Both the position numbers and the translations under genes were made by a program. The notes under the pieces were generated by a model, which saw nothing but the letters and a program-made list of their open reading frames with translations, had not been told where the DNA came from and made no database searches. Source: a virus (Duplodnaviria; Heunggongvirae; Uroviricota; Caudoviricetes). From it: 39,466 bases of DNA. The stretch is from the IMG/VR virus record IMGVR_UViG_2531839252_000006; one strand, 5' to 3'. Shown in pieces: positions 20,242 through 37,603 of the stretch (position 1 is its first letter; every line of letters begins with the position of its first letter).

Positions 20242-20242
20242 A

Positions 20243-20485
20243 TCATGCTCCGGTAGTGAACAGGTCTAACGCTTCCTTCGATTTACGCACCGCTTCGATA
20301 GTGCGAGATGTGAAGTCTGGATTTGCACCGCCATCGTTGTAGTGCAACTTGAACAATTCCAGTTTCAGTTGGTCGGCACTAATGAATGCAAAAGCTTCCT
20401 CTGCCGCTGAATTGTTCTTAGATAGCAGTCGGTAAATTTCTAACTTGAATTTCTGTTCTTCAGTCATGGGAATAATCTCTGCCAT
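20243..20485 (-). CDS. Hypothetical protein, 80 aa (P22 ORF80-like position).
   Basis: GGAG 6 nt upstream; position between Rha and terminase. Confidence 0.5.
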   Translation of the reverse strand: MAEIIPMTEEQKFKLEIYRLLSKNNSAAEEAFAFISADQLKLELFKLHYNDGGANPDFTSRTIEAVRKSKEALDLFTTGA

Positions 20486-20588
20486 TGTTGGCTCCGTTTA
20501 TCCGTTAAAAGGGATATCAGTTAAGTTATCCCGTGTAGGGTATAAGCCATTATCAAAGCCACTCTGTAGGGAATGGCTTTTGTAATAA

Positions 20589-20945
20589 CTACTGTTCGCT
20601 TAGCTTCTGCTTCAGCAAGTAACCTTCGAGCATCCAGATTTTGTTTACAGCATTCTGCCGGGCAATCTTCCGACCAATTTCTGCATCAAAATTTTCCGGA
20701 CTTGCACAGGCGCTCTCTCCGGTGACGGTGAAGCCATTCTTCAGCACCAGTACGCAGAAAGTCAGGAGGTCTGTAGATTTATGCGCTGTCCATGAATCGC
20801 CAACGCCCATATTGGCAGCACGAATGCCGTCATAAGCAGTAAAGAAATGCTCTTCAAGAATGATGCTTTCGATATATTGAAGCGTAACTCGCGGAGCGGT
20901 TTTGCCTTTCTCAACGATTTCTTTTTCGATTTGCTGGTCGTTCAT
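20589..20945 (-). CDS. Conserved phage hypothetical protein, 118 aa.
   Basis: Intact ORF in the late operon; family not confidently recognised. Confidence 0.5.
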   Translation of the reverse strand: MNDQQIEKEIVEKGKTAPRVTLQYIESIILEEHFFTAYDGIRAANMGVGDSWTAHKSTDLLTFCVLVLKNGFTVTGESACASPENFDAEIGRKIARQNAVNKIWMLEGYLLKQKLSEQ

Positions 20946-21103
20946 AATTATGACCCTGTGGAGTGGTTGCTTGATTAGGATGTCTTTCCATCAGTCCGCC
21001 ACCACAAAGAATCTTTTTTGCCATAAGGCAGGAGGTTCATCTTTCAGTGGCTGCCAGTGTTATTTCCCCACTTACTGGCTTGGGTTGTTTCGCTGTACTG
21101 CCG

Positions 21104-21646
21104 TTAATTAGTGAGTCCGGGGATTACGGTTTGCCCGTGCTGTTCAAGGCGTTCAATTCTCGCCAGTAGCTGAGGCTTCTTAATTTTTCCCCAGCGATTA
21201 AGCAGGCGACCTGACATGCTGGCAACATCCTTCTCTTTCATGTACTCCAGCATTACGGCATTTCTCTCTTCTTCAAATTGACGATGACCAACCTGAAGCA
21301 TGGCGTACATCCAGTTAAATGCGTTGATGTAAGCAATTTTGATACGCATTGCTTCTTTTTTGGTGTAGGACATAACCAAAAGCATCAACCCATCCTTGCG
21401 GAGACGGTAGAATTTTTGCGGCTTACCATTCTGTAACTCATTGTTTTTATAGCAAAGCTCAAAGTTGAGCTTTGTATCAAACTCAGGAGGGCAAGCTTCT
21501 ATGGTTCGTTCAATGTCACGAACTACGTTCTTCGGCAGCTTTCCAAATGCTTTTGCCACCATAAAAGAATCTGTAACCGGATCGTTGTTTGCCACAAAAA
21601 TCAGATCTCGGAAATCAATGCCGTTAACGATAGTTGGATAATGCAT
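21104..21646 (-). CDS. rha: Rha-family phage regulatory protein.
   Basis: N-terminal region (DSFMVAKAFGKLPKNVVRDIERTIE) is typical of the Rha domain; position matches P22 ORF201. Confidence 0.7.
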   Translation of the reverse strand: MHYPTIVNGIDFRDLIFVANNDPVTDSFMVAKAFGKLPKNVVRDIERTIEACPPEFDTKLNFELCYKNNELQNGKPQKFYRLRKDGLMLLVMSYTKKEAMRIKIAYINAFNWMYAMLQVGHRQFEEERNAVMLEYMKEKDVASMSGRLLNRWGKIKKPQLLARIERLEQHGQTVIPGLTN

Positions 21647-21790
21647 CAGTGATCACCTTTTAGTGATGAACCTTGTCACACAGGATTCCGGCCCACAGAA
21701 AGGCACCGATCACCAAACCGGCATCCTCAAGGGTCATCCTGAAAGGTTCTGTGTTCATAAGTCGCGCGTGTGAAGCGCGTTTACTGCGGA

Positions 21791-21818
21791 CATAAAAAAG
21801 CCCCGCATCGCGAGGCTC
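21791..21818 (-). terminator. Possible rho-independent terminator downstream of Rz.
   Basis: Minus-strand hairpin gcctcgcgatgcggggc followed by ttttttat. Confidence 0.4.
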
Positions 21819-21849
21819 ATTAAATGGACTTTGTGATTTGCAAAAAAAT

Positions 21850-22287
21850 TTATTTCAGGCACTGAGTCCTGATGTACTCCTGCAGGTAGTTAACCTGCGC
21901 GGTTATCCTGTCGATTCCACTTCGGAGACGGTAATAATTGAGTTCAGCATCTGCTGTAAGTCTTGGGCTTTCTCCATCGCCCATGCCGCTGGCTCCGGTC
22001 GTTGACTTTGCACAGGTGGCGGCGACTTGCAGGCGCTTACGCCCAGCAGAAACATCAGCACGGAGACTTTCGATAGTCGCGTTAGCATCAGCAAGCTCCT
22101 TTGTATATCTGGCATCGAGTTCTGCTACGTCACGTTGACGCTTCTGCATATCAGCGATGATGGATGTGGCTTTATCGCGCTGGTCTTTGTAGGCGATGGC
22201 GTTATCACGGTAATGATTAACAGCCCATGACAGGCAGACGATGATGCAGATAACCAGAGCGGAGATAATCGCGGTTAACCGACTCAT
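21850..22287 (-). CDS. Rz: Rz i-spanin, 145 aa.
   Basis: N-terminal transmembrane segment [19 protein letters not shown] followed by a coiled-coil periplasmic domain; contains embedded Rz1. Confidence 0.8.
21903..22088 (-). CDS. Rz1: Rz1 o-spanin lipoprotein embedded in the +1 frame of Rz.
   Basis: Lipobox LLGVSAC followed by a proline-rich short mature peptide; entirely inside Rz. Confidence 0.6.
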
Positions 22288-22375
22288 GACATCAACACCC
22301 CAACAGCCAGAAAACACGGCCACGCATCGTTGCCATTAAATGCGAGCAACGCTGCCATGAAAAAGCAAATCATGC

Positions 22376-22873
22376 TCATTGCTGCCCCCACAAACAGACT
22401 TCACGCTCAATCTCACGACGAGTCATCAGCCCTTTCCATTGCTTACCGCCAGCGTATGTCCAGCGACGTAGCTGGTCACATGCGCCTTTGATATCGCCCT
22501 GGTTTATTTTGCGAAGAAGCGTCGATGTTCTGAAATTGCCTGCGCCCACGTTGTAGACGAACGAGTAAAGAGCGCCGCGCGTTGTTTCCGGTATATCGAC
22601 TTTGATGTACGGGTTAATTTGTCTGGCGACCGTGGCAAGGTCTTTATTCAGGAGGGCTTTGCATTCTGCTTCGGTATACGTTTTACCGGGAATGATGTCT
22701 TTTCCGGTGTGTCCGTGACATACAGTCCATACACCAACGATATCTTTATATGGTATGTAGCTGACGCCTTCCAGACCATCGTTACCACTTGGGCCAGTGA
22801 TTAACACAGATGCTATAGCAATAGCCCCGCCACCAATAGCCGCAGCAACGGCTTTTCGTAATGATGGAGGCAT
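22376..22873 (-). CDS. R: SAR (signal-arrest-release) endolysin, phage 21 R-like lysozyme, 165 aa.
   Basis: Weakly hydrophobic Gly/Ala-rich N-terminal SAR segment ([20 protein letters not shown]) followed by a lysozyme domain; start overlaps the holin stop (TAATG). Confidence 0.85.
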
Positions 22874-23088
22874 TATTCACCTCTCGCAGCCTTTCTTCTG
22901 TCTTCTCTGATTTTGAAGTACAGATTTGTCAGATAGGTGAGAAAGCCCAACACAAGGCTTCCAAGCACTCCAATCGCAGCCCACTGTGATGGACTGACCT
23001 GATCCAACCACTGCAAAAACCAGTATCCCGCACTACCAGCGGATGTTCCGTAAGCAATGCCAGTTGAGATTTTGTCCATTGATTTCAT
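22873..23088 (-). CDS. S: Pinholin, phage 21 S21-like, 71 aa with dual start.
   Basis: [30 protein letters not shown] ... matches remembered S21; the MKSM dual-start motif gives antiholin and holin forms. Confidence 0.85.
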
Positions 23089-23377
23089 AGCAACGCCTCC
23101 GCCAGTAACGGATTGCGTAGTTCTTATATTGGGAAGGGGAAAAGAAGGCCGCAGCGTAACTATCGCTGATGAGTTCAGGATAGTCAGTGGCTACGGCTCA
23201 GTTTGGGTTGTGCTGTTGCTGGGCGGCGATGACGCCTGTACGCATTTGTTGATCCGGTTCTGCTTCCGGTATTCGCTTAATTCAGCACAACGGAAAGAGC
23301 ATTTATGGCTCGCATCGCGGGAAAAAGCCCACGGTAGAGAGTCGAACTCTACAAATGCTCTTACCTGTTGCACAGAT

Positions 23378-23440
23378 ATAAAAAATCCCGAAACCGTTAT
23401 GCAGGCTCTAACTATTACCTGCGAACTGTTTCGGGATTGC
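23378..23440 (-). terminator. tR' terminator (end of the 6S late leader).
   Basis: Minus-strand aatcccgaaac ... gtttcgggatttttttat matches the remembered lambda tR'. Confidence 0.7.
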
Positions 23441-23572
23441 ATTTTGCAGACCTCTCAGCCTGCGATGGTTGGAGTTCCAGACGATACGTCGAAGTGACCA
23501 ACTAGGCGGAATCGGTAGTAAGCGCCGCCTCTTTTCATCTCACTACCACAACGAGCGAATTAACCCATCGTT
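23380..23572 (-). ncRNA. Lambda-type 6S late leader transcript (PR' to tR'), including the qut site.
   Basis: The minus-strand sequence from the promoter to the terminator reads like the remembered lambda PR'-qut-tR' segment; predicted length about 190 nt. Confidence 0.5.
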
Positions 23573-23574
23573 GG

Positions 23575-23610
23575 GTCAAATTTACCCAACTTTATTCAAA
23601 TAGTCAATAT
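23575..23610 (-). promoter_or_regulatory. Late promoter PR' (-35 TTGACT at 23602-23607, -10 TAAATT at 23579-23584) with the overlapping Q-utilisation site.
   Basis: Hexamers seen on the minus strand with 17-bp spacing, immediately downstream of Q; same as remembered lambda PR'. Confidence 0.7.
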
Positions 23611-23649
23611 TATGCCGTTAATATGTTGCCATCCGTGGCAATCATGCTG

Positions 23650-24273
23650 TTAACGTGTGACCGCATTCAAAATGTTGTCTGCGATTGACTCTTCCTTGTG
23701 GCATTGCACGACCAGAGCGTCATACAGCGGCTTAACAGTGCGTGACCAGGTGGGTTGAGTAAGGTTTGGGATTAGCATCGTTACAGCGCGATATGCGGCG
23801 CTTGCTGGCATCCTGGAATAGCCGACTCCTTTGCATCTTCCGCACTCTTTCTCAACAACTCTCCCCCATTGCTCTGTTTTGGCTATATCAACCGCACGGC
23901 CTGTACCGTGGCAATCTCTGCATCTTGCGCCCGGCGTCGCGGCACTACGGCAATAATCCGCATAAGCGAATGTTGCGAGCACTTGCAGTACCTTTGCCTT
24001 AGTATTTCCTTCAAGCTTTGCAACGCCACGGTATTTCCCCGATACCTTGTGTGCAAATTGCATCAGATAGTTGATAGCCTTTTGTTTGTCGCTCTGGCTG
24101 AGTTCGTGCTTACCACAGAATGCAGCCATTCCGAATCCGGCTTGTGATTGCGCCATCCCCATAGCAGCCATCACATCAGTACCGGAAAGAGAGTCAGAAG
24201 CCGTAGCCCGTGGTGAGTCGCTCATCATCGGGCTTTTTGGCGAATGAAATTTAGCTACACTTTCGAGTCTCAT
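23650..24273 (-). CDS. Q: Late-gene antiterminator Q (lambda type), 207 aa.
   Basis: Translation MRLESVAKFHSPKSPMMSDSPRATASDS ... with zinc-binding cysteines (CRDCHGTG ... CGRCKG) matches remembered lambda Q, same length. Confidence 0.9.
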   Translation of the reverse strand: MRLESVAKFHSPKSPMMSDSPRATASDSLSGTDVMAAMGMAQSQAGFGMAAFCGKHELSQSDKQKAINYLMQFAHKVSGKYRGVAKLEGNTKAKVLQVLATFAYADYCRSAATPGARCRDCHGTGRAVDIAKTEQWGRVVEKECGRCKGVGYSRMPASAAYRAVTMLIPNLTQPTWSRTVKPLYDALVVQCHKEESIADNILNAVTR

Positions 24274-24458
24274 CGTCTTCCCTTTTTGCCTGGCGTGACC
24301 ATCAGGACGCCGTTAACTATTACGTGACGCTCGCCTTTGCTGTCTCGGTTGTACTTGAGCACTGTTCCTCTTGCGCAGGAAAGCATCCTTGCCACTTCGG
24401 TCTGATTGCCTCGTGTCTGGATAAGAAGCTCTGGTATCGTTTGAATTGTGGCGTTCAT
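24270..24458 (-). CDS. ninH: NinH-like protein.
   Basis: Motif GNQTEVARMLSCARGTVLKY resembles lambda NinH; overlaps neighbouring genes by 4 nt. Confidence 0.65.
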   Translation of the reverse strand: MNATIQTIPELLIQTRGNQTEVARMLSCARGTVLKYNRDSKGERHVIVNGVLMVTPGKKGRR

Positions 24459-24817
24459 ACGTTCTCCAGTTCGGTGATTTTTATTCCAAGCCTTCCGCCT
24501 GGTACTTTCACGCCACGAATTACGCGAATGTCATCGAATTGCTCGTCGTCTTCTGCAAATCCGGCGTGGATAAGGGAGTCGAGTAAACCTTTCAGGATGT
24601 TATCGAGGTCGCGGCGGCGGGAGTCTGGAACGTCTGCGATGACTTTGATGCGGAGTCGTGATTTGGTGAAAATATCTAACTTGAGTTGGCGGATTATTTG
24701 CTGTACATCTTTTCGGTATTTCTGGCCTTTATCGCTGATGTAGTATTGGCTTCCCCGTCTTCGCCAGTAGGTGTTCAGCGACGGCGGATATGGAAGCACA
24801 AACTGATATTCGTTCAT
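24455..24817 (-). CDS. rusA: RusA Holliday-junction resolvase, 120 aa.
   Basis: LPYPPSLNTYW and DLDNILKGLLD motifs are typical of RusA. Confidence 0.85.
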   Translation of the reverse strand: MNEYQFVLPYPPSLNTYWRRRGSQYYISDKGQKYRKDVQQIIRQLKLDIFTKSRLRIKVIADVPDSRRRDLDNILKGLLDSLIHAGFAEDDEQFDDIRVIRGVKVPGGRLGIKITELENV

Positions 24818-25104
24818 GACTTAATCTTCCCCTCCTTCAGCAGTATCACCTGCGTCCTGATCACGCCTTCGAGGTGGTAAAGTCTGGCGTCTTTGTTGTC
24901 GAGATTATGGGTGCGTCGGTCGATTTCATCGTGACACGCGCTACAAGCCCATGCACCGATCAGGTCGTCAGGCTTCATTCCAGTTCCGCAAATTCCAGCC
25001 ATCCGGTAATGTGCCAGAACTGTAGTTTCAGGATTGCCATTGCATATGCCGTAAATACGTACCTGGCATTCTCTGCCGCGCGCTTCTTTGCGTAGGTTAG
25101 CCAT
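24814..25104 (-). CDS. DUF1364-family (YbcO-like) nin-region protein, 96 aa.
   Basis: Cys/His-rich small protein; start chosen at the ATG at 25104 (AAGGAAA 7 nt upstream) rather than the GTG at 25125. Confidence 0.55.
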   Translation of the reverse strand: MANLRKEARGRECQVRIYGICNGNPETTVLAHYRMAGICGTGMKPDDLIGAWACSACHDEIDRRTHNLDNKDARLYHLEGVIRTQVILLKEGKIKS

Positions 25105-25444
25105 TGTGATTTTCCTTTTCGTCACATTTGCATTTGCAACATTCCATATGGTATGGGAATGAGCTATCCAGTTCGGTAAACCATTCCCTGCATTCAGGGC
25201 AATACAAAACCTCCCATGGAACTCCGTATTCCGTTATCCATTCGAGGACCTGCTTTGTCATTGGAATTGGCGGTATTGCTGAAACATCGTAATTTTTTAT
25301 GGATAATTCTTTCAAAGCCATGTCGTAACGATGCTGAACTGTCGAAAGGTGTCGATTTGTTATGACTAGCTGGCGTCTTAACTGGTAATTGGCTTCGATT
25401 AAATCGTTAATCCTTTTTCCTGGATGGGAAAGTGTTTTCATCAT
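25097..25444 (-). CDS. Hypothetical nin-region protein, 115 aa, Cys-rich C-terminus.
   Basis: Intact ORF with GAGG upstream; CPECREW ... CCKCKC motifs suggest metal binding. Confidence 0.5.
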   Translation of the reverse strand: MMKTLSHPGKRINDLIEANYQLRRQLVITNRHLSTVQHRYDMALKELSIKNYDVSAIPPIPMTKQVLEWITEYGVPWEVLYCPECREWFTELDSSFPYHMECCKCKCDEKENHNG

Positions 25445-25610
25445 CTTCTTCCTCGTACATTGAGCTATTCGGATCGCTCATCAGTTCTGCGCAGCAATCG
25501 GAGCACACGTGAACTTCCAGCACATGCAGCTTCTGACCGCAGTTAGCGCACGTTAAAGCCCGCTCGACGCTTTCTTTCTGGTATTGAAGAGATTGGGATG
25601 GACTAAGCAT
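25407..25610 (-). CDS. ninF: NinF-like protein.
   Basis: [36 protein letters not shown] matches remembered lambda NinF. Confidence 0.7.
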   Translation of the reverse strand: MLSPSQSLQYQKESVERALTCANCGQKLHVLEVHVCSDCCAELMSDPNSSMYEEEDDENTFPSRKKD

Positions 25611-26010
25611 GGCTTTCACCATTAAAAAGTCGCTTGTAAGCATCAATGTCTCGTTTTGCTTCACCAAGCTTTCGTCTTAATTCCATGTTTTCTGATTCAA
25701 GCTTTTCCATGTCTTGCTGGTATCGATCGCGGTGTTCTTTCCATGCTTTTCGATACGCCTTCATGTATGTCGTATTGGCCTTTCTCTTTGCCTGACGAAC
25801 TGCGTGGTGGTTTTTCACAAACCAGTCAGGGTCGTTAAATGCTGCTCTGGCGCATGTATACCAATAATTTGTTGCCTCCCTGTTTAGCCAATAAATACTG
25901 ATAAATGGCAACTGGATAGACACCATTTTTCGTTGAGACTCTTTCTCGCCAAACATGTGCCCTTTTTTGATGCTAAGGCCAAATCCAGGTTGAATTAAAA
26001 GCATTGTCAT
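25603..26010 (-). CDS. Hypothetical nin-region protein, 135 aa.
   Basis: ATG overlaps the ninE stop (ATGA); the start of the longer ORF track entry (26046) would overlap ninE. Confidence 0.5.
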
Positions 26011-26183
26011 TTCCTCGCACGATGTCTTAGCCACCGGATATCCCACAGGTGAGCCGTGTAATTGAAGGTTTTTACGTCAGATTCTTTTGGGATTGGCTTG
26101 CGTTTATTTCTGGAGCGTTTCGTTGGAAGGTATTTGCAGTTTTCGCAGATTATGTCGGTGATACTTCGTCGCTGTCGCCTCAT
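26007..26183 (-). CDS. ninE: NinE-like protein, 58 aa; not in the ORF track.
   Basis: Hand translation [58 protein letters not shown]; its ATG overlaps the ninB stop (ATGA). Confidence 0.65.
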
Positions 26184-26590
26184 TCATACCTCCTGTCGGT
26201 AAATCTGACACCCTGACCAATAGCCCAGGCTGTTGTGTACTCGATCAGACTTGCCATACGCTTCACGCTCATCTGTGCGCTACTCTCCCGAATGTTGACG
26301 AATTCGCCTTCAAGGCCGGGCAAAACATCAGCTTCCTGTTTTGTTGCCACTGCATGACCGCTGATCAACAAAACCTTCCATTGTTCTGGTTTTAACCATT
26401 TATCGCACCATTGAACCTGACGAGCGATATCCGCCAGCATCGCGTGAAATTTTGCGTTCTGGTCAAGATTTCGCTTGTAGTCAGTAATGCGGATGGTGAC
26501 TGGCTTGTCTTTATCGAGAGGAGTTGAGAGGATGGCATTTATTGCGGCTTGCTGTTGTTGCTTACTTCGGAGGAAGATTGTTTGCTTCAT
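26180..26590 (-). CDS. ninB: NinB (Orf-family recombination mediator), 136 aa.
   Basis: Size and position at the start of the nin region; similarity to lambda NinB from memory. Confidence 0.75.
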
Positions 26591-26592
26591 CG

Positions 26593-26907
26593 TTACTCCT
26601 TCACTTTGACTCCGGCAGCGCGGATGTTTTCCTCATAAGCATCCATTGCATCACCGAAGCCATTGGAATAATCAACAGTAAACCCTTTGGCTAATGCTTC
26701 TCTGCTGTCGATAAACTTTGGCGCGGTTATTTCAATAGCTGCTCGCGATGCCTGCCATAAAGCCCACCACTCATTTAAGGAGTGACGAATATCCATGCTT
26801 GAAAATGCGAAGTACCTATCACCATTTCTTGCCTCGGTTATCATCTCGAATGGTAATCTCAATTTTTTGGCAACGTATTCCTCAAACTTCTTTCTTGATT
26901 CGTCCAT
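26593..26907 (-). CDS. Hypothetical protein, 104 aa.
   Basis: Intact ORF in the early-right operon between helicase and ninB. Confidence 0.5.
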   Translation of the reverse strand: MDESRKKFEEYVAKKLRLPFEMITEARNGDRYFAFSSMDIRHSLNEWWALWQASRAAIEITAPKFIDSREALAKGFTVDYSNGFGDAMDAYEENIRAAGVKVKE

Positions 26908-26918
26908 ATCAATCCCCG

Positions 26919-27119
26919 TTATGACAGGTTAATTTTCACCCAACCCTTCCCACGCACATTTGCAACAAGCCCTTTCTTTCTCAGGTATTGCATACGGCGA
27001 TCGATGGTTTCGATATACATTCCATTGCTCCGCCATTTAAGCCAGATATCAAAAACAGGTGTTGGTCTTTCACTCAGCATTGAAAGAATGTTTTGATCTA
27101 ATTTTTCGTACTTGCTCAC
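26919..27119 (-). CDS. Hypothetical small protein, 66 aa (possibly a winged-helix DNA binder).
   Basis: Intact ORF; basic C-terminus. Confidence 0.45.
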   Translation of the reverse strand: MSKYEKLDQNILSMLSERPTPVFDIWLKWRSNGMYIETIDRRMQYLRKKGLVANVRGKGWVKINLS

Positions 27120-27442
27120 AAATACCCTCTCTCACTTAATCGCGCCCACGCTTCGTTAAACTCTTCTCGGGTTGCGCCGGATTTTCTTTCTTCAAACATC
27201 ACGCATTCGCTGATGTCTCCCCATGACTTTGGTCGCTTTTCAGCGAACAGATCATCCCATTCGAATACCCAGCGGCCTGATTTTCGGTAGTGGTAAATGG
27301 TCAGCCATGTTGTGCTGTTCGCTGGATACCCATAGAGAACTTCGACTTTTTGATCACGGTCTTTATGCTTTTTCAGAAGGATAAAGCCAGCAACCAGCGA
27401 AGCTCCGGCAAGAATGATGATTGGAATTTGCCAGTCAGCCAC
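27116..27442 (-). CDS. Hypothetical membrane protein, 108 aa (GTG start, N-terminal transmembrane helix).
   Basis: N-terminus IPIIILAGASLVAGFILL is hydrophobic; overlaps neighbouring genes by 4-8 nt. Confidence 0.5.
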   Translation of the reverse strand: MADWQIPIIILAGASLVAGFILLKKHKDRDQKVEVLYGYPANSTTWLTIYHYRKSGRWVFEWDDLFAEKRPKSWGDISECVMFEERKSGATREEFNEAWARLSERGYL

Positions 27443-27518
27443 ACTTCCCTCTCCCCCAAATAAAAAGGCCTGCGATTACCAGCAGACCTGTTATTAGCTC
27501 AGTGATGTAGATGGTCAT
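27435..27518 (-). CDS. Possible 27-aa hydrophobic peptide ([27 protein letters not shown]), coupled to flanking genes.
   Basis: Its ATG overlaps the upstream stop (ATGA) and its stop overlaps the downstream GTG start; a single transmembrane-like segment. Confidence 0.25.
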   Translation of the reverse strand: MTIYITELITGLLVIAGLFIWGRGKCG

Positions 27519-27784
27519 TGCTTCATCTCCCTTTCCATTTCATCAATGTCAACGTCATCAGGAAGATGGGAGCAATACGCCGCTATACCATGATGATTTA
27601 TCTCATACCCTTTGAACGTTACCATCTGATGCGTAATCTCAACTTCGTTCAGGAATCCGTCATCGCATAACTGCCTGGCTATTTTCGATTTGGTCTGGAT
27701 TATTGGTAGTGCCTGTTCTTTCAAAGCGCATGATATTTGTGCATCCCATGCCTTTTCGAGAATGGCTAATTGTTTTTTATTCAT
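27515..27784 (-). CDS. Hypothetical protein, 89 aa.
   Basis: Intact ORF immediately downstream of the helicase gene. Confidence 0.5.
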
Positions 27785-29156
27785 ACGTCAGCCCCTTGTG
27801 CATATCGTCTGCCACGCGCAGCAGGTGCATTTGATGCTGTGCAAATCTGTCTGGCTTCATCCTGGTCACATGCAACAAAGTGTCCGTTGCAGAACCGCTG
27901 GTAAACCGTACCAAGCGAGCCAAAACGGTTTTTCGTCACAATGATTTCAGCAAAGGGCGCGGCGCTACTGTTCTCGTCATATACCGCTTCCCGATAGAGC
28001 ATGATGATTGAGTCTGCGTCCTGCTCAATGCTTCCTGAATCACGCAAATCTGCGTTTGTCGGGCGTTTGTTTGGTCGCTTCTCAACATCGCGTGAAAGCT
28101 GGCTTAGGGAGATAACAGGCGTTTTCAGGTCTTTCGCCATCGCCTTCAGGCTTCCGGAGATGTGAGCAATTGCAAGGTCGTTGCGGTCTGCTTTCGGCTT
28201 CTCAATCAGGCCAAGATAATCCGCCATGATGAGTGACAGGTTTGGATTTTCCTGTTTGTGCCGTTCTGCGATTGAGCGAATTTCTTCGACCGATAACCGC
28301 GAGGCATCGACTACCCATACATCCAAATCTGCAAGCTGACTCATGCCGTTAGCAACACGCGCCCAGCCTTCGTCATCCATCGATGCAGGATTTCGCAGCA
28401 CGCTAACCACATCCTCCCGGCGTTGGCAATACTTCGCTCTGCAATCTGCAATGCGCTCATTTCCATTGAGAAAATCAATACTCCGCGCCGGACGTCAGAA
28501 CCAGGAATAACACGACTTGCAACGCCTTCGGCAATCTTCAGCGCCAGTTCGGTTTTCCCCATACCAGGACGAGCGGCGATAATCACCAGGTCTTCTGCGT
28601 TCATCCCTCCGGTGATTGCGTCAAGTTCTTCGATTCCGGTCTTCAGGGTATCTGACTCTTCTCCGTTCCTCAGACGCCTGTCAAGCGTGTCAGTGTAGTC
28701 AGTGATGATTTCCCCTAACCGTACAGGTTTAACCTCGTCACGGGGCTTTCTGATAGCTGAAAGACGCTTTACAAGTTCATCCATCGCCTGACTCGATGCG
28801 TCGATGGTTCCGCTCTGAATTGGTTCACGCATTTCATCCATGATTTCCAGCACCAGACGGCGGTGATAGTTATCCGCGACCATTCCAGCATATCCCTTCA
28901 GGTTTGCGGCACTCGGGCAGTTTTTGCTGGTCATCAGGATTGACGTGAAATGCTCCTCTCCGCACTCCTCGGCAACCATCAGCGCATCGATTAGGTTTCT
29001 GTTTCTCGCCTGCTTGCGGATAACCTCGAAGGCTTTCCTGTAGAGCGGAATTGAAAACGCTTCCGGCTCCAGCGTTGCCAGAACGTCGCTGGCGGTTGGA
29101 GTTAATCCACCAATCAGCAGGCCACCGATAACGCTCGCTTCGATATCCTGTCTCAT
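27781..29156 (-). pseudogene. DnaB-family replicative helicase (P22 gene 12 equivalent), split into two ORFs by a frameshift near 28400-28420.
   Basis: ORF 28341-29156 carries Walker A ([12 protein letters not shown]) and [21 protein letters not shown]; ORF 27781-28410 in another frame carries the downstream helicase motifs ([42 protein letters not shown]). Combined length about 458 codons. Confidence 0.8.
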
Positions 29157-29974
29157 GCAATTCCCCTGTCTGCAAACTTCCCTTCACGAACTCCCGTTAA
29201 CGAATCTTCTCTCAGCAGGTAATCAAAATCAGCCGTCCAGCCCGTGTCGTTGTCTCCGAAGTAAAACGGCTTGGCCTGATGCACAAACGCCCTGACATAC
29301 GCCCTGAAACCGTCCACGTTTGGCGTTTTCAGTTGCGGGATGATTTTTTTCAGGCGGCGTTTGCGTTTCTCGTTGACCGCAACAGCGTGTGGAAGTCTGT
29401 CACCGACTTCGGTGTTGTAGGCGTTCAGGAAGGATTCGTAGTCGATTCGTTCTGCCTTGCGACGTTCAGGTTTAACCTGCCCATCGCCGCCCCCGTTAGG
29501 GGGTAAGGGGGTATTTGTATTTATTGTCTTTTGTATATTGTCTTTTGTGTTTAGCTGACTTGGCTTATACCCATTAGCTGACTTGGCTAATGTTTTATTA
29601 GCTGTTTTAGCTAATGTTAAGCTGTCCTGGCTAATCCACTGCGAAACCACCTTGTTCACTCCGATTTTCACGCCATCAGCAATGAGGAATTTACGCTCAA
29701 TAAGCTGGCGCTTGGCAGCGCAAACATGAGTGTGATGAATACCTGTCATGGCTGCTATCTGCGTGTTTGTGAGTCGATCCATCGGCTTATTGAATCCGTA
29801 TGTCTTGCGCATGATAGCGAGCATCACCTTCAACTGCCGGACGGTTAAATCAGCCATCAGCAGACTGTCGGTAATCTCGTTAGCAACGCGCATGAAACCA
29901 TCTTCGGTATCTGCCACGCGATGCTCCACGACCTCAAGTTGAGGCCTGTAATCAGCTAACTTAACGACGCCCAT
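29153..29974 (-). CDS. Replication initiator, lambda O / P22 gene 18 family, 273 aa, containing the origin.
   Basis: Size and position upstream of the helicase; iterons and an AT-rich tract lie inside the coding sequence. Confidence 0.8.
29511..29640. repeat. Origin of replication: iterons (tagctgacttggct x2 plus degenerate copies) next to an AT-rich tract with attgtcttttgt x2, embedded in the O-like gene.
   Basis: Direct repeats seen at 29551-29636 and the AT-rich repeat at 29511-29550; same arrangement as lambda ori within O. Confidence 0.65.
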
Positions 29975-30122
29975 GTTTCACTCCTGCTTTGGCTAGTCTG
30001 TAAACACCAACAAGGCGCTCTGCGAACGCCCTGTTATTTGCTGCGGCTACCACTAATCCCTCAGGTGAATCAGGGTGTCGAATCTCTTCTTTTTCCTGGT
30101 ATTTCTTACGACGTTTTGTCAT
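29961..30122 (-). CDS. Small basic hypothetical protein, 53 aa, between cII and O.
   Basis: AGGAG 6 nt upstream of the ATG at 30122. Confidence 0.4.
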   Translation of the reverse strand: MTKRRKKYQEKEEIRHPDSPEGLVVAAANNRAFAERLVGVYRLAKAGVKHGRR

Positions 30123-30156
30123 AATTACTCCTGTGGATTGATCCAGTCTTTCTACA

Positions 30157-30435
30157 TCAGGCCTCAAAACTGTTGCAGCAGTCTTGAGGCTTTTCTTTTG
30201 TCAGCACCTTGGCTACTTTCTTTGCCAGTTCCGCCAATTCCTCGTCTTCAACACCCCACTCCAGCACAGCCAGAAGCATGGCCATCTTTGGGATAAAGCT
30301 GTCTTTCCATCGCGAAATTTGCGATTCATTAATCCCTAACGCGTCGGCAACCTTTCGCTGACCACGTACAGCAATTCGATTTAGGATGTTGCTTGTAATT
30401 GCATTCGCTTTCTTGCGAGTACTTGTAAGTTGCAT
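30157..30435 (-). CDS. cII: CII-type transcriptional activator (P22 c1 equivalent), 92 aa.
   Basis: GINESQISRWK and MLLAVLEWGV motifs match the lambda CII / P22 C1 helix-turn-helix region. Confidence 0.8.
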   Translation of the reverse strand: MQLTSTRKKANAITSNILNRIAVRGQRKVADALGINESQISRWKDSFIPKMAMLLAVLEWGVEDEELAELAKKVAKVLTKEKPQDCCNSFEA

Positions 30436-30493
30436 ATGTAAGTATTTCCTTAACAAATAAGAAGTTATACGCACCAACTGATGCGCGTTGTAT

Positions 30494-30537
30494 TCCCGCA
30501 TTTCGGCGGGAATGAGGACCATGACTGTTAAAGAGCA
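30494..30537 (-). promoter_or_regulatory. nutR: boxA (TGCTCTTTAACAG) followed by the boxB hairpin (tcccgc-cgaaat-gcggga) on the minus strand.
   Basis: Seen directly; the boxA matches the rrn/lambda boxA consensus and the same boxB sequence recurs at nutL. Confidence 0.55.
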
Positions 30538-30543
30538 ATTTGC

Positions 30544-30729
30544 TTATGCCGCTTTGCGATAAGCACTTTCTTGATACTTCAGGGCGCCAGCTGTAACGAC
30601 TTCCAGTCGATAGGCGTCTTTCTCTGGGATGACTTCCTTCCACTGAGAGACTGCTGCATCGCTAATGCCTAACGCTTTAGCTACCGCACGCTGGGTTCCG
30701 AAGTGGTCGATAACATCTTTCTTGTACAT
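30544..30729 (-). CDS. cro: Cro repressor, 61 aa.
   Basis: MYKKDVIDHFGTQRAVAKALGISDAAVSQWKEVIPEKDAYRLEVVTAGALKYQESAYRKAA matches remembered P22 Cro. Confidence 0.9.
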   Translation of the reverse strand: MYKKDVIDHFGTQRAVAKALGISDAAVSQWKEVIPEKDAYRLEVVTAGALKYQESAYRKAA

Positions 30730-30743
30730 AGACTCGCTCCGAA

Positions 30744-30808
30744 ATTAAAGAACACTTAAATTATCTATCAAAGGAATCTTAAGTCAAGTTTATTTAAGAT
30801 GTCTTAAC
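30744..30808. promoter_or_regulatory. OR operator region with PR/PRM: 18-bp operator attaaagaacacttaaat (30744-30761) plus two more ATTTAAG/CTTAA-type half-site pairs.
   Basis: Palindromic operators of the P22 type seen between divergent cro and c2. Confidence 0.7.
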
Positions 30809-30809
30809 T

Positions 30810-31460
30810 ATGAATACACAACTGATGGGTGAGCGTATTCGCGCTCGCAGAAAAGAACTCAAGATTAGGCAGGCTGCCCTTGGCAAGATGGTTGGCGTGT
30901 CTAATGTTGCTATTTCCCAATGGGAGCGTTCTGAAACTGAGCCCAATGGCGAAAACCTATTGGCCTTAGCCAAGGCTTTGCAGTGCTCCCCTGATTACTT
31001 GTTGAAAGGAGAAGATAGTCTTTCAAACATTGCCTATCACAGCAGGCATGATCCAAGAGGTTCGTATCCTCTAATTAGTTGGGTAAGCGCAGGATGTTGG
31101 ATGGAAGCTGTAGAGCCATATCATAAGCGTGCAATAGATAACTGGTACGATACAACCGTAGATTGTTCAGAAGATTCGTTTTGGCTGGACGTAAAGGGTG
31201 ATTCGATGACGGCTCCAGCCGGTCTTAGCATCCCGGAAGGGATGATAATACTAGTCGATCCTGAAGTAGAACCTCGTAATGGGAAGCTGGTAGTGGCAAA
31301 GCTCGAAGGAGAAAACGAGGCAACTTTCAAGAAGTTAGTTATTGATGCTGGCAGAAGGTTTCTAAAACCACTTAACCCACAATATCCGATGATTGAGATC
31401 AACGGGAACTGCAAAATCATCGGTGTAGTTGTCGATGCAAAAATAGCAAACCTTCCATAA
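30810..31460 (+). CDS. c2: Prophage repressor C2 (CI-type, LexA-like S24 autopeptidase fold), 216 aa.
   Basis: Translation MNTQLMGERIRARRKELKIRQAALGKMVGVSNVAISQWERSE ... GDSM ... matches remembered P22 C2; same length. Confidence 0.9.
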   Translation: MNTQLMGERIRARRKELKIRQAALGKMVGVSNVAISQWERSETEPNGENLLALAKALQCSPDYLLKGEDSLSNIAYHSRHDPRGSYPLISWVSAGCWMEAVEPYHKRAIDNWYDTTVDCSEDSFWLDVKGDSMTAPAGLSIPEGMIILVDPEVEPRNGKLVVAKLEGENEATFKKLVIDAGRRFLKPLNPQYPMIEINGNCKIIGVVVDAKIANLP

Positions 31461-31482
31461 GGGGCATTCGCCCCTTTTTTCT
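31461..31482 (+). terminator. Rho-independent terminator directly after c2.
   Basis: ggggc-attc-gcccc followed by tttttt. Confidence 0.7.
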
Positions 31483-31499
31483 TTCCTTTAAAAATCAAA

Positions 31500-31600
31500 G
31501 CAAAACTTAAACTTCGCAATAAAATTTAAGTTTTCTTCAAAAACACTCTCGACCACCAATTAAAGAAATCTTAAATTTAAGTCATCAGCAGGACGCTGGT
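31500..31600. promoter_or_regulatory. OL/PL region: 18-bp operator attaaagaaatcttaaat (31559-31576) and further CTTAAA/TTTAAG half-sites.
   Basis: Operator palindromes seen directly; position upstream of nutL and N. Confidence 0.5.
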
Positions 31601-31622
31601 AGCCAAACGGAACAGATTGGCA

Positions 31623-31664
31623 GGCTCTTTAACATTGATGGGATTGTCCCGCCGAAATGCGGGA
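31623..31664 (+). promoter_or_regulatory. nutL: boxA (GCTCTTTAACA) plus the boxB hairpin (tcccgc-cgaaat-gcggga).
   Basis: Seen directly; boxB is identical to the nutR copy. Confidence 0.55.
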
Positions 31665-31771
31665 ACCAAAGAGTAGTTGGCTTTGGGGTGACGTGAAGTG
31701 CAGCTGCACGACGGCAACCGGAAGATAAGCACCCGGCGCGTCACCGCCAAAGTCAATCATCGGAGGTCAAC

Positions 31772-32044
31772 ATGACAGTAGTCATTACATATCTGGCTGA
31801 CGATAACGCCAGAAATAGCCGCAGAGCACGCAGACAGGCTCAACGTGAACAGGCAATGCAAGAGCAGCGACTGGCGCGAAAGATTGCGCTAAAGCTCTCT
31901 GGTTGCGTCAGAGCAGATAAAGCAGCATCACTCGGAAGCCTTCGCTGTAAGGAAGAAGATGAACGCAGTGGAAGTATTTGCCTGCCAAACGTAGCTCTTT
32001 ACGCGGCAGGCTACAGGAAATCAAAACAACTGACGGCGAGGTAA
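31772..32044 (+). CDS. N: N-type transcription antiterminator, 90 aa.
   Basis: Arg-rich N-terminal motif (NARNSRRARRQAQREQ) and first gene downstream of PL/nutL; GGAGG 5 nt upstream. Confidence 0.7.
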   Translation: MTVVITYLADDNARNSRRARRQAQREQAMQEQRLARKIALKLSGCVRADKAASLGSLRCKEEDERSGSICLPNVALYAAGYRKSKQLTAR

Positions 32045-32046
32045 TT

Positions 32047-32340
32047 ATGGATATTTCATGTATTGAACAATTACTAATTGAGAAAACGAAAGAAATGCTT
32101 GATGTATTGGACATAAAAATATCTGAGTTAAAAGATACACCCGCGACACAACTTATTCTCGAACGTAGTCGAAATAAATTCTTAGAGTTAAACCCTGACG
32201 TTCAAAATATAGCATCTAAACTGCTGGCTACATTGATTGAGAGAAATGCATTGTTATCGATGTCATCAGATGAACGAAAAAAACTGGCGAACGAAGATGC
32301 TGCAACCATCCGCCAGGCATTCGAAATTTTGTTTTCTTAA
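32047..32340 (+). CDS. Hypothetical protein, 97 aa, in an AT-rich segment after N.
   Basis: GAGG 6 nt upstream of the ATG at 32047; the longer ORF-track start would overlap N. Confidence 0.5.
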   Translation: MDISCIEQLLIEKTKEMLDVLDIKISELKDTPATQLILERSRNKFLELNPDVQNIASKLLATLIERNALLSMSSDERKKLANEDAATIRQAFEILFS

Positions 32341-32505
32341 TTACTTACTGTTTATTCTGATAATCTCATCAAGAATTTTTTCATAAACAACTGTGATTGG
32401 CTTTCCGTCAATGCCAGGGGCAAGATTACCGGCTCTGATAAGCTCAACAATAATCTGTTGAGCGGCTTCGTGTGGGTTGGTTTTAGGATTAACAATATCT
32501 GTCAT
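32341..32505 (-). CDS. Hypothetical small protein, 54 aa, convergent with the preceding gene.
   Basis: GAAGGG upstream of the ATG at 32505; stop abuts the stop of the plus-strand 97-aa gene. Confidence 0.4.
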   Translation of the reverse strand: MTDIVNPKTNPHEAAQQIIVELIRAGNLAPGIDGKPITVVYEKILDEIIRINSK

Positions 32506-32715
32506 AACAAAGCCCTTCTTTTGACTGTGGAAACAACAGTCTACCCATTTCCTTTGACTGTGGAAAGTGAAGGAACCACCGAGCCTGATGTGGTTAAAAG
32601 ACAGGCACAATCTTTACTACCGCAATCCACTATTTAAGGTGATATATGGAAGAAGAATTTGAAGAGTTCGAAGAGCATCCTCAGGATGTGATGGAACAAT
32701 ACCAGGACTATCCGT

Positions 32716-32916
32716 ATGACTACGACTATTGATAAAAATCAATGGTGTGGACAATTCAAGCGATGCAATGGATGCAAGCTGCAATCGGAATGCATGGTTA
32801 AGCCTGAAGAAATGTTTCCTGTAATGGAAGATGGGAAATATGTCGATAAATGGGCAATACGAACGACGGCAATGATTGCCAGAGAACTTGGTAAACAGAA
32901 TAACAAGGCTGCCTGA
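32716..32916 (+). CDS. ral: Ral-like restriction-alleviation protein, 66 aa.
   Basis: Length and sequence (MTTTIDKNQWCGQFKRCNGCKLQSECMVKPEEMF ...) resemble lambda Ral as remembered; position after N. Confidence 0.6.
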   Translation: MTTTIDKNQWCGQFKRCNGCKLQSECMVKPEEMFPVMEDGKYVDKWAIRTTAMIARELGKQNNKAA

Positions 32917-33052
32917 TGGTGGCCTTTATTTTTGGCATAAACAACAGAATAAACACTGCACTGTGTATTCATTCCAACGAGTGAATACACGGAGCAATGT
33001 CGCTCGTAACTAAACAGGAGCCGACTTGTTCTGATTGTTGGAAATCTTCTTT

Positions 33053-33080
33053 GCCCTCCAATGTGAGGGCGATTTTTTAT
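33053..33080 (+). terminator. Rho-independent terminator in the PL operon (tL-like).
   Basis: gccctc-caatgt-gagggc followed by gattttttat. Confidence 0.55.
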
Positions 33081-33098
33081 CTATGAGGATATGAATAG

Positions 33099-33467
33099 AT
33101 GTCAAACATCAAAAAATACATCATTGATTACGACTGGAAAGCGTCAATAGAAATTGAAATCGACCATGACGTAATGACAGAGGAAAAACTTCACCAGATT
33201 AATAATTTCTGGTCAGACTCTGAATACCGACTCAATAAACACGGCGCTGTATTAAATGCTGTATTAATCATGCTGGCGCAACATGCTCTGCTTATAGCAA
33301 TTTCGAAAGACTTAAATGCATATGGTGTTGTTTGTGAGTTCGACTGGGATGATGGAAATGGTCAGGAAGGATGGCCTCCAATGGATGGTAGTGAAGGAAT
33401 AAGAATTACCGATATCGATACATCAGGAATATTTGATTCAGATGATATGACTATCAAAGCCGCCTGA
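33099..33467 (+). CDS. Acidic hypothetical protein, 122 aa, at the lambda ea10 position.
   Basis: Position between ral and cIII, and the same length as lambda Ea10; no sequence similarity was checked. Confidence 0.45.
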   Translation: MSNIKKYIIDYDWKASIEIEIDHDVMTEEKLHQINNFWSDSEYRLNKHGAVLNAVLIMLAQHALLIAISKDLNAYGVVCEFDWDDGNGQEGWPPMDGSEGIRITDIDTSGIFDSDDMTIKAA

Positions 33468-33542
33468 GCGCGGCTTTACCGCATACCAATAATGCTTCAC
33501 GAGAGGCATTTTCGTTATGCAATCAAATATAAGGAGTTACCC

Positions 33543-33677
33543 ATGATGCACTTTCAGCTCGCGGGTAGCGGCGTCATGTCCGCTTTCTACCCGCACGAAT
33601 CTGAATTATCACGCCGAGTTAAACAATTAATCAGAGCAGCAAAGAAACAACTGGAGGCGTTATGCGCAATGAAATAG
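33543..33677 (+). CDS. cIII: CIII-like protein (FtsH inhibitor), 44 aa.
   Basis: MMHFQLAGSGVMSAFYPHESELSRRVKQL resembles the lambda CIII core; AAGGAG 6 nt upstream. Confidence 0.6.
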   Translation: MMHFQLAGSGVMSAFYPHESELSRRVKQLIRAAKKQLEALCAMK

Positions 33678-33814
33678 CCATTAATCACCAGATGCTTCGT
33701 GCTGCACAGAACAAAGCAGTAATAGCCAGATTTATTGGTGATTCAAAAATGTGGCTTGAAGCAAATAAAGCGATGAAATCAGCTATCAACCTTCCGTGGT
33801 ATCGCAGGAAATGA
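33662..33814 (+). CDS. kil: Kil-like host-killing protein, 50 aa; not in the ORF track.
   Basis: Hand translation MRNEIAINHQMLRAAQNKAVIARFIGDSKMWLEANKAMKSAINLPWYRRK resembles lambda Kil; GGAGG 5 nt upstream; overlaps the cIII end. Confidence 0.5.
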   Translation: MRNEIAINHQMLRAAQNKAVIARFIGDSKMWLEANKAMKSAINLPWYRRK

Positions 33815-33970
33815 GTTTTACAGATAACTGGTCAGACGAAGAATTCATTCGTCAGATGAAAGAATTAATCGGTAACGAAGGAGATATTCATGTCACTTGC
33901 AACCACAGTGAAGGAGAGCAAGTTACAGAGACGCATGTACACGCAGAAAGCTCTCTGGTATCGCCATAAT
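33812..33970 (+). CDS. Possible small protein, 52 aa, coupled to kil (ATGA overlap).
   Basis: Hand translation MSFTDNWSDEEFIRQMKELIGNEGDIHVTCNHSEGEQVTETHVHAESSLVSP. Confidence 0.3.
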
Positions 33971-34068
33971 GGTGACCGCGAAGGAATGCGGGTATGCCTT
34001 AATTTGTCCCGAGTCGAAGTATTAAATCAGCGTTATTTCCTTGGGCCGTGTCCATTCTGAGGTGAATT

Positions 34069-34776
34069 ATGGATTTGAACAAATTCGATGAGCCATTCAG
34101 CCCTGAAGATATCGAATGGCGAATACAGCAAAGCGGTAAAACACGCGATGGCAAGGTGTGGGCTATGGTGCTGGCTTATGTCACGAACCGGGCAATCATG
34201 AAACGCCTGGACGATGTTTGCGGCAAAGCAGGATGGCGCAATGAATACCGCGATATTCCCAACAACGGCGGAGTTGAATGCGGCATATCAATCAAGATTG
34301 ATTCCGAATGGGTAACCAAATGGGATGCTGCTGAAAACACGCAGGTAGAAGCCGTCAAAGGTGGTCGTTCAGGTGCAATGAAGCGTGCTGCCGTTCAGTG
34401 GGGAATCGGTCGGTATCTGTATAACCTTGAGGAAGGTTTCGCACAAACATCTCTCGATAAAAAGCAGGGGTGGCACAGGGCAAAACTGAAGGATGGAACA
34501 GGATTTTACTGGCTCCCTCCATCGCTGCCGGGATGGGCAATCCCAGCATCAGATAACAAACCATCACCAGAAAATACCAACCAGAAATCTCCATCGGTTG
34601 ACTGCGAACAAATCCTGAAAGACTTCAGCGATTATGCGTCAACAGAAACTGATAAGAAAAAACTCATCGAGCGTTATCAGCGTGACTGGCAATTAATGGC
34701 TGGCAACGAGGAGGCGCAGGCTAAATGCGTTCAGGTAATGAACATCAGAGTTAACGAACTAAAACAGGCGGCATAA
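34069..34776 (+). CDS. Single-strand annealing recombinase, Rad52/Rad22-like, 235 aa.
   Basis: Motif GAMKRAAVQWGIGRYLY resembles the Rad52-family signature; followed by ssb and an exonuclease. Confidence 0.6.
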   Translation: MDLNKFDEPFSPEDIEWRIQQSGKTRDGKVWAMVLAYVTNRAIMKRLDDVCGKAGWRNEYRDIPNNGGVECGISIKIDSEWVTKWDAAENTQVEAVKGGRSGAMKRAAVQWGIGRYLYNLEEGFAQTSLDKKQGWHRAKLKDGTGFYWLPPSLPGWAIPASDNKPSPENTNQKSPSVDCEQILKDFSDYASTETDKKKLIERYQRDWQLMAGNEEAQAKCVQVMNIRVNELKQAA

Positions 34777-35283
34777 ATGGCAAGCAGAGGCGTAAATAAG
34801 GTGATTATCCTTGGTCGGGTAGGACAAGCCCCGGAAGTTCGATACTCACCATCAGGAACAGCGTTAGCTAACCTGACAATAGCCACATCAGAACAATGGC
34901 GAGATAAAAATACTGGCGAGCAAAAGGAATTGACTGAATGGCATCGTGTTGCTGTATCCGGGAAACTGGCTGAGGTCGTGGGGCAGTATGTGAAAAAAGG
35001 TGATCAGATTTATTTCGAGGGAATGCTGAGAACCAGAAAGTGGAAAGACCAGTCAGGGCAAGACCGTTACACAACCGAGGTTCATGTCGGAATTAATGGC
35101 GTGATGCAAATGCTTGGCGGCATTGGCGACAGCAAACAACAAGCAGCCAGCAGGCAATCACAGAAGCCACAGCAGCAATCATCACCAGCACAACACAACG
35201 AACCTCCGATGGATTTTGACGACGATATACCCTTTGCACCAGTAACTCTCCCCTTCCCTCGTCACGCTATTCACGCAATTTAA
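34777..35283 (+). CDS. ssb: Single-stranded DNA-binding protein (OB fold), with a 15-aa extension after the DDDIPF motif.
   Basis: N-terminus [41 protein letters not shown] is a typical SSB; Gln-rich linker; DDDIPF is followed by [15 protein letters not shown] before the stop. Confidence 0.85.
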
Positions 35284-35291
35284 GGACTTAC

Positions 35292-35840
35292 ATGAATCAC
35301 TTAATGGTTGACCTTGAAACAATGGGCAACGGGCCATACTCGCCAGTTATTTCTATTGGGGCGGTATTCTTTGACCCGAATACCGGAGAAACAGGAGAAG
35401 AGTTCTCGGTAAATATCTCGCTTGAGTCATCAATGCGATATCGGGCGCGTCCTGACGCTTCAACGATTTTATGGTGGATGGAACAGAGTGAAGAAGCCAG
35501 AAAATCGCTAACCAGCAACACTCAAGAGCTTTCAACGGCTCTTTCATGGTTATCTGAATTCATCATAAAGAACGCCAACCACAAATTCGTTCAGGTTTGG
35601 GGGAATGGAGCATCATTTGACTGCGTTATTCTCCGCAACAGTTATTCGCTGACAGGGCAGCCAGTTCCGTGGCAGTGGTGGAATGACCGCGACGTAAGAA
35701 CAATCGTCGAACTTGGGAAGGTAATAGGATTCGACCCTAAGCGAGATATGCCATTCAAAGGAACTCGCCACAACGCGCTTGATGATGCCATTCACCAAGC
35801 CAAATACGTTTCAGCGATCTGGAAAAAGTTAGCTAAATAA
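35292..35840 (+). CDS. DEDDh-type 3'-5' exonuclease, 182 aa.
   Basis: Motifs VDLETMG (D-x-E), WGNGASFDCVIL and HNALDDA (H-x4-D) are present. Confidence 0.75.
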   Translation: MNHLMVDLETMGNGPYSPVISIGAVFFDPNTGETGEEFSVNISLESSMRYRARPDASTILWWMEQSEEARKSLTSNTQELSTALSWLSEFIIKNANHKFVQVWGNGASFDCVILRNSYSLTGQPVPWQWWNDRDVRTIVELGKVIGFDPKRDMPFKGTRHNALDDAIHQAKYVSAIWKKLAK

Positions 35841-35856
35841 TCAACAGGAGAAAACC

Positions 35857-36150
35857 ATGCCAGCGCCTCTGTATGGTGCGGACGACGCGCGCCGCTGTTC
35901 CGGCAATTCCGTATCGGAGGTGCTGGATAAATTCAGAAAAAACTACGACCGGATAATGTCGCTACCGCAGGAAACGAAAGAGGAAAAGGAATTTCGCCAC
36001 TGTATATGGCTTGCAGAGAAAGAAGAACGCGAGCGAATTTACCAGACATCAATCCAACCATTCCGCAAAGCCACATATACCCACTTCCCTGAAATTGACC
36101 CGCGCCTGCGTAATTACCGCTCACGTTATGGCGCTATCAGTAATGACTGA
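35857..36150 (+). CDS. Hypothetical protein, 97 aa.
   Basis: Intact ORF in the PL operon. Confidence 0.45.
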
Positions 36151-36160
36151 GGAATTTACC

Positions 36161-36325
36161 ATGAGAGGACTTGCATACAATCCCGGCATTCTTCCGGCAG
36201 AAATGATTATTCGCCAACGCGTAAAGCCAATGCCATCGAGAGAGGAATTGCTTAAGAGAAATTCTTTTCCATCAGTAAATCAAAACAAATATCTGAATGC
36301 GATGTGGCGGAGTGGGAAGAAATGA
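36161..36325 (+). CDS. Possible small protein, 54 aa.
   Basis: GAGG 8 nt upstream of the ATG at 36161; overlaps the next gene start. Confidence 0.3.
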
Positions 36326-37227
36326 AACAAATGTCACTAATTGAGATGGATGGATTTCTGAAAGGTAAATGCATCCCACGAGATTTAAAGGTTAACGAAA
36401 CAAACGCTGAATATCTTGTCCGTAAGTTCGGTGAACTTGAATCAAAACTCAACGAGCAGCGTGAGTATTACGAGGGCGTTATCTCGGATGGGAGTAAGCG
36501 TATTGCTGAACTGGAGAAAAGCGAAGAGCAACTCATCAACGAGCGTGACCATGCTGAGTATGCTTTAGCTGATATGTATTTTGCAGCAACCGGGAACAGG
36601 CCGGAATGGAGTAACTGTTTCAGTTTTTCAGATGCAGTAGATGCCGTAGTTGACAGAATTGCTGATTTAGAAGTTAAACAGCCATCGCCAGTAGTACCGG
36701 AAGAAAAACCAATGCCGAACCCTCTTAGCATGTATGCGGTTGATGCGGTTGCAGCTATTGCAGAGGTGAGAGGCTGGAACGCCTGTCGTGCCGCCATGCT
36801 TCATGGTGCCAAACCTGTAAGCCAAACTTACAACTTGCCACAAACGGAGTTTGAACAGGTTGCTGACCTCTACAAAATGCAATTTGATGACGGTCGCACT
36901 TGTGCCTTTCACACTGATGCGCAAAAGGCTGCTCAATGGCTTCAGACGTGCGACGGAAACAGAGTTCAGGAATACGTGAAGCTGGAACGGTTGCAGAATG
37001 CGCTGTCTGGCAACTATCCGGTAACTCCGGATGGTTGGATAAGCTGTAGTGAGCGAATGCCAGATGATGGTCAGCACGTAATTATTTTATGTGATGGCGC
37101 ATTCGTTCTTTATGCGCAATATCGAGACGGTGAGTTTTTTGATGTTGTCCGCAATGGTGAGGAGTTCTTCGAAACGCAGAGCCGCAATGTAACCCACTGG
37201 ATGCCGCTACCAGAACCGCCGCTCTGA
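36322..37227 (+). CDS. DUF551-domain phage protein.
   Basis: C-terminal [18 protein letters not shown] ... [10 protein letters not shown] is the DUF551 hallmark; start chosen at the ATG at 36322 rather than the GTG at 36304. Confidence 0.55.
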
Positions 37228-37592: not shown

Positions 37593-37603
37593 GGAGACAA
37601 GAA

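Follow-up and report, generated by a model that had tools for sequence, protein, structure and literature searches.

Analysis of the window, a stretch of 39,466 nucleotides that represents a complete P22-like prophage of E. coli, revealed a gene for a DnaB-type replicative helicase that is interrupted by the loss of a single base. We consider it very likely that this frameshift is a genuine, recent and inherited loss-of-function mutation and that the prophage is replication-defective. The protein family and the kind of phage are both known, and the mutation is of the most ordinary kind; no new kind of element or mechanism is involved. The gene was identified as the orthologue of gene 12 of Salmonella phage P22 by its similarity over the full length and by its position directly downstream of an O-like initiator gene containing iterons. 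The intact parent allele shows 90.6% protein identity to the P22 gene product over all 458 amino acids (100% coverage; tblastn, NC_002371.2, positions 33300 to 34673), and the order of O-like initiator with internal iterons, helicase and nin region is shared with P22. In contrast to P22 gene 12, the window copy is interrupted at codon 249 and does not encode a full-length protein. The features discussed here are listed in Table 1.

Table 1. Positions of the disrupted helicase gene and of further prophage features in the window
Feature	Position	Strand	Description and basis
Disrupted DnaB-type replicative helicase gene, P22 gene 12 orthologue	27781..29156	minus	1376 nt; intact gene 1377 nt
N-terminal ORF, 271 aa	28341..29156	minus	248 native residues, 23-residue out-of-frame tail, TGA stop
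C-terminal reading frame, 209 aa	27781..28410	minus	native residues 250-458, with Walker B and the rest of the RecA-like core
1-nt deletion site	between 28408 and 28409		G on the plus strand, C on the gene strand, second base of the Ser249 codon TCG; alignment to MS 16-3
O-like replication initiator gene (P22 gene 18 type), intact	29153..29974	minus	Pfam Phage_rep_O, E=5.8e-33; PHROG replication initiation O-like
Four direct repeats (iterons) of ~22 nt inside the initiator gene	29550..29638		repeat analysis
89-aa gene, phrog_2239	27515..27784	minus	ATG overlaps the helicase stop (ATGA at 27781-27784)
Hexapeptide-repeat (left-handed beta-helix type) acyltransferase gene, 236 aa	1-711	+	Pfam Hexapep, E=5.8e-07; adjoins the tailspike gene at the far prophage end

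An earlier note on this DNA had described DnaB-type helicase motifs split over two overlapping frames, and both the list of open reading frames and the Pfam searches agree with this description. The DnaB N-terminal domain (PF00772) was found on residues 3 to 95 of the 271-aa ORF (E=7.6e-14), which also carries positions 2 to 73 of the DnaB_C profile; positions 82 to 247 of the same profile fall on the 209-aa ORF. The native part of the 271-aa ORF comprises the DnaB N-terminal domain, the linker, the Walker A motif GMGKT at residues 198 to 202 and the H1a motif FSMEM. The intact allele aligns with E. coli DnaB (PDB 6BBM) over residues 5 to 428 (E=3e-66), and the motifs Walker A, H1a, Walker B and SQLSR are conserved. 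In this alignment, GMGKT and FSMEM lie upstream of the break, and IMADYLGL (Walker B), SQLSR and the remaining RecA-like core lie downstream of it. Since the cut separates H1a from Walker B, each fragment lacks part of the ATPase site for nucleotide binding and hydrolysis. Pfam (PF03796) and motif alignment likewise located a complete RecA-like ATPase domain with Walker A, H1a, Walker B, H3 and H4 on no single polypeptide of the window. In the intact allele, which belongs to PHROG 19 (DnaB-like replicative helicase), both Pfam domains are present and DnaB_C is continuous (E=9.3e-78). Judged by its reading frames, the window copy is a pseudogene of the DnaB family (PF00772 and PF03796). With respect to E. 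coli DnaB, it is a frameshifted phage paralogue and not the host gene.

The lesion was defined by comparison with the closest public record, the prophage of E. coli MS 16-3 (NZ_CP146667.1), in which the gene is one uninterrupted ORF of 1377 nt with the annotation replicative DNA helicase. This comparison with an intact gene of a related prophage, which had been suggested in the earlier note, revealed a deletion of exactly 1 nt, and the missing base is the sole difference between the window and the MS 16-3 helicase region over 1552 nt. On the gene strand, the intact allele reads GGATGTCGGTTAGC and the window GGATGT-GGTTAGC. The deletion lies inside the interval of 28400 to 28420 near which the switch of frames had been placed, and the length of the intact relative matches the anticipated frame of about 458 codons. 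The short G-run next to the switch, which the earlier note had pointed to, proved not to be involved: the run (cctcccgg at 28413-28420) is equally long in the intact allele, and the lost base, a C with T on one side and G on the other, belongs to no homopolymer. Slippage in the G-run was therefore rejected as the cause. The intact helicase of MS 16-3 (WP_001248398.1) is identical to the helicase in the record of Escherichia phage HZ41, which thus shares 100% identity with the intact allele; overall, HZ41 is only a mosaic relative with 49% coverage of the window from 20000 to 39466, i.e., the early and regulatory half.

Two alternatives had been put forward for the missing base, a real inactivating frameshift and a single-base assembly error. 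To distinguish between them, the exact aberrant 271-aa product was looked up in a public protein collection and in independent assemblies. It was found on at least 18 separate contigs of different assemblies with lengths from <2 kb to >1 Mb, including Logan contigs of SRR6160962, ERR11813043 and ERR11500512 and the ENA metagenome ERZ28629703, and it is also present at NCBI under EFC9354903.1, ELH08373.1, ELI18706.1 and HDX5650352.1. Four carrier loci were compared and show 99.92 to 100% identity to the window over 1.3 to 21 kb. They can be told apart by individual substitutions: position 24848 is a C in two of the carriers (L004 and L005) and a T in the window, and the metagenome carrier (L007, ENA ERZ28629703) has a C-to-T change at its position 1207 (window 28263) that corresponds to R298W. 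The carriers share the alleles of the window at positions 31679 and 31550. The exact intact parent protein, in turn, was found on 307 contigs; as the local sequence was assembled there with the base, its context does not provoke a systematic deletion. A comparison with 622 complete E. coli genomes, which contain 652 homologous sites, revealed the deletion at none of these sites, the best matches reaching 80 of 81 positions. The deletion allele is rare.

If the missing base were an error in the assembly of the window and the real gene were intact, this would account for a difference of a single base from a prophage with 99.98% identity and for the occurrence of the extra base in all 622 complete genomes holding a homologue. 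It would, on the other hand, have to be reconciled with a frameshifted product that was called independently in sequencing runs, a metagenome and NCBI submissions, with the same context having been assembled with the base on 307 other contigs, and with a site that is no homopolymer in 39.5 kb of DNA free of any further indel. We therefore regard an assembly error as very unlikely. The occurrence of the same product in many assemblies, carriers that are distinguishable by SNPs and the lack of another indel argue for an inherited mutation, and of the two original alternatives the inactivating frameshift stands. The near identity of the carriers points to repeated sampling of one small, young clone and not to a mutation that arose many times. 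The possibility that the window is an earlier assembly of MS 16-3 was also considered; this is unlikely, as the two are seven substitutions apart and two of these are common to other frameshift carriers. With regard to annotation, the exact aberrant product in independent assemblies allows a frameshift to be separated from an assembly error without reads.

Two side observations concern the substitutions themselves. The two shared alleles at 31550 and 31679 belong to the seven substitutions that separate the window from MS 16-3 and are common to all frameshift carriers covering this stretch; they lie in non-coding DNA bordered by the N-like gene and the repressor gene, presumably in the leftward operator/promoter region. 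The R298W change of the metagenome carrier lies C-terminal to the break, where the helicase is no longer read, and is compatible with relaxed constraint, but one change proves nothing.

A true one-base difference in the DNA might still be bridged during expression, by programmed -1 ribosomal frameshifting of the dnaX type or by transcriptional slippage, so that a full-length helicase is made. The two frames indeed overlap, and a Shine-Dalgarno-like GGGAGG is located just upstream of the break. However, the intact allele has GGGAGG as well, merely as the codons for Gly-Arg, and the two-frame layout is shared by none of the 652 homologous sites, the parent allele being a single ORF on its 307 contigs. 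Restoration of the frame would require a -1 shift, since one base is missing, and the 154 nt that are open in both frames (28341-28494) contain neither an X XXY YYZ heptamer in any phase nor a homopolymer of at least five bases. As heptamer, long homopolymer and conservation are all lacking, programmed frameshifting and transcriptional slippage were rejected; we give recoding next to no chance.

Apart from the helicase gene, the prophage is well preserved. The window extends from the start codon of the acyltransferase gene (position 1) to the start codon of the integrase gene (position 39466), and the only differences between its 39,466 bases and the MS 16-3 prophage are seven substitutions and, as the one indel, the deletion in the helicase gene (99.98% identity). 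In MS 16-3, the prophage is flanked on one side by a frameshifted ShET2-like gene, which is adjacent to yniD, and on the other by thrS. When the 63 annotated coding sequences of MS 16-3 were mapped onto the window, 62 were found to be open and only the helicase gene was disrupted. The encoded proteins are identical in 60 cases, and two have one missense change each (A86V in the DUF1364 protein and N66D in Ant). Widespread decay of the prophage was therefore rejected. As everything else is intact, the helicase deletion appears as the first lesion of a prophage that starts to decay, and the best reading is a young, replication-defective prophage with a single lesion, in an ordinary early stage of decay. 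The repressor was considered as well, because in one carrier (L004) it is called with 119 aa instead of 216 aa, and a truncation could allow loss of immunity. Its DNA and protein are identical to those of the window and only the start chosen by the gene caller differs, so this candidate was dropped.

We next considered what the break means for phage replication. The P22-type module consists of an origin-binding initiator and a phage DnaB-type helicase that stands in for the host helicase (PMC8022706). Gp12 of P22 is described as a DnaB-type helicase that works with gene 18, and gene 18 itself as containing four repeats of ~20 bp (PMC8022706, citing Wickner 1984 for the former). The window shows the same arrangement: the iterons within the initiator gene match the origin described inside P22 gene 18 (PMC8022706) and are the probable phage replication origin. 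The TGA stop of the intact initiator gene overlaps the ATG of the helicase gene (ATGA at 29153-29156). A lambda-P-type loader for host DnaB is not annotated in the window. In classical P22 genetics, mutants in gene 12 are defective in phage DNA synthesis, and P22-type headful packaging needs concatemers. For the essentiality of gene 12, no open-access statement was found, the literature searches yielding genomic descriptions only.

Based on this knowledge of P22 gene 12 and on the position of the break, a replication defect with the following consequences is most likely. Ribosomes starting at the normal ATG would produce a protein of 271 residues that ends after 23 wrong residues, and Walker B and the remaining motifs would lie in a frame that is not read from this start. 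As neither piece has a complete ATPase site, no working hexameric helicase would be formed. The initiator would still bind to the iterons in its own gene, but it would have neither a phage helicase to recruit nor a loader for host DnaB. Induction would then lead to derepression and probably to excision of the prophage, without amplification of its DNA, and consequently to few or no particles and essentially no progeny. Rescue would require help in trans, or one of the many related prophages as a recombination partner for repair. The deletion may also affect the 89-aa gene downstream, whose translation may be coupled to the now unread helicase frame under normal conditions; loss of this coupling may lower its expression.

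The gene could be broken and the phage nevertheless not functionally dead, if the helicase worked in two pieces, if another resident lambdoid prophage with a near-identical gene supplied it in trans or if recombination with such a prophage repaired the gene. Of 5426 complete E. coli genomes, 874 carry helicase genes with 97 to 98% DNA identity, some of them in several copies, and the remaining prophage is intact. The C-terminal frame, moreover, has possible start codons: it is open from a GTG at 28410 that is preceded by GGGAGG, and some C-terminal fragment might be made from there. Sequence analysis gave no indication, however, that the 209-aa frame is translated. A cut at this place in the RecA-like core, past H1a but ahead of Walker B, is also unfavorable for complementation by fragments, and a helicase supplied in trans would presumably need specificity for this initiator. 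A two-piece helicase is thus conceivable but improbable, and taken together we consider it unlikely that the phage has remained functional by any of these routes.

With a replication-defective prophage as the preferred reading, the prophage, complete in all other respects, probably stays confined to the chromosome of this strain and would spread as infectious particles only after complementation or recombinational repair of the helicase. Its cargo includes the hexapeptide-repeat acyltransferase as a candidate conversion gene. This 236-aa protein is not a membrane O-antigen acetylase of the Oac type, and its gene was the only candidate conversion gene seen.

One could further speculate that the frameshift has been kept since the 271-aa protein helps the host, by dominant-negative poisoning of the helicase hexamers of incoming P22-type phages, i.e., by superinfection exclusion. 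This idea is based on the domains that the 271-aa protein retains, namely the N-terminal domain, the linker and the P-loop; in E. coli DnaB, the N-terminal domain is the primase-binding part. If it were true, the resident prophage would be disarmed as well, and the small carrier clone would be selected and not merely neutral. We regard such a benefit as highly improbable.

A split helicase annotation was also encountered in other phages, there with a different cause. Stx2a-converting prophages, e.g., those of E. coli O157:H7 ECP19-798 and of O121 strains, carry the same helicase gene with about 97% nucleotide identity. In ECP19-798 (NZ_CP066756.1; locus L003, 595-2988), it contains an in-frame insertion of 1017 nt inside Walker A (ARPGMGK / AMALSEG...VTHN / TELALK). 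The inserted sequence has LAGLIDADG-like blocks and ends with HN followed by Thr, and the ORF is open for 797 codons. The same arrangement was found in dozens of records of Stx2a-converting phages. By these features, the insertion is very probably an intein in the P-loop of DnaB, with Ala as its first residue, and would be removable at the protein level. The window gene has no insertion of this type, being collinear with the intein-less allele except for one base. The split annotation of the Stx2a homologues thus results from an in-frame insertion, a probable intein, in contrast to the frameshift in the window.

Some further annotations of this gene and its surroundings deserve mention. Despite the uninterrupted ORF, PGAP divides the helicase gene of ECP19-798 into three pseudogene fragments, each annotated as incomplete. 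The PHROG families phrog_23150 and phrog_11530, both labeled 'unknown function', match only residues 1 to 211 (E=1.8e-99) and 276 to 458 (E=8.3e-96) of the intact helicase, respectively. These matches suggest that both families derive from split annotations of the same helicase, either intein-containing or frameshifted, and do not represent distinct proteins. The DUF551 gene (locus L008, 4240-5145; about 36322 to 37227 in the window) is annotated by PGAP with 165 aa in MS 16-3, leaving an unannotated gap of 400 nt, and the gene caller behind the Logan contigs assigns it 301 aa on identical DNA. Finally, the MS 16-3 chromosome contains a gene for a type III effector of the ShET2/EspL2 family, annotated as frameshifted (locus L008, 295-1326), which lies outside the window on the integrase side, about 670 bp beyond the integrase gene.
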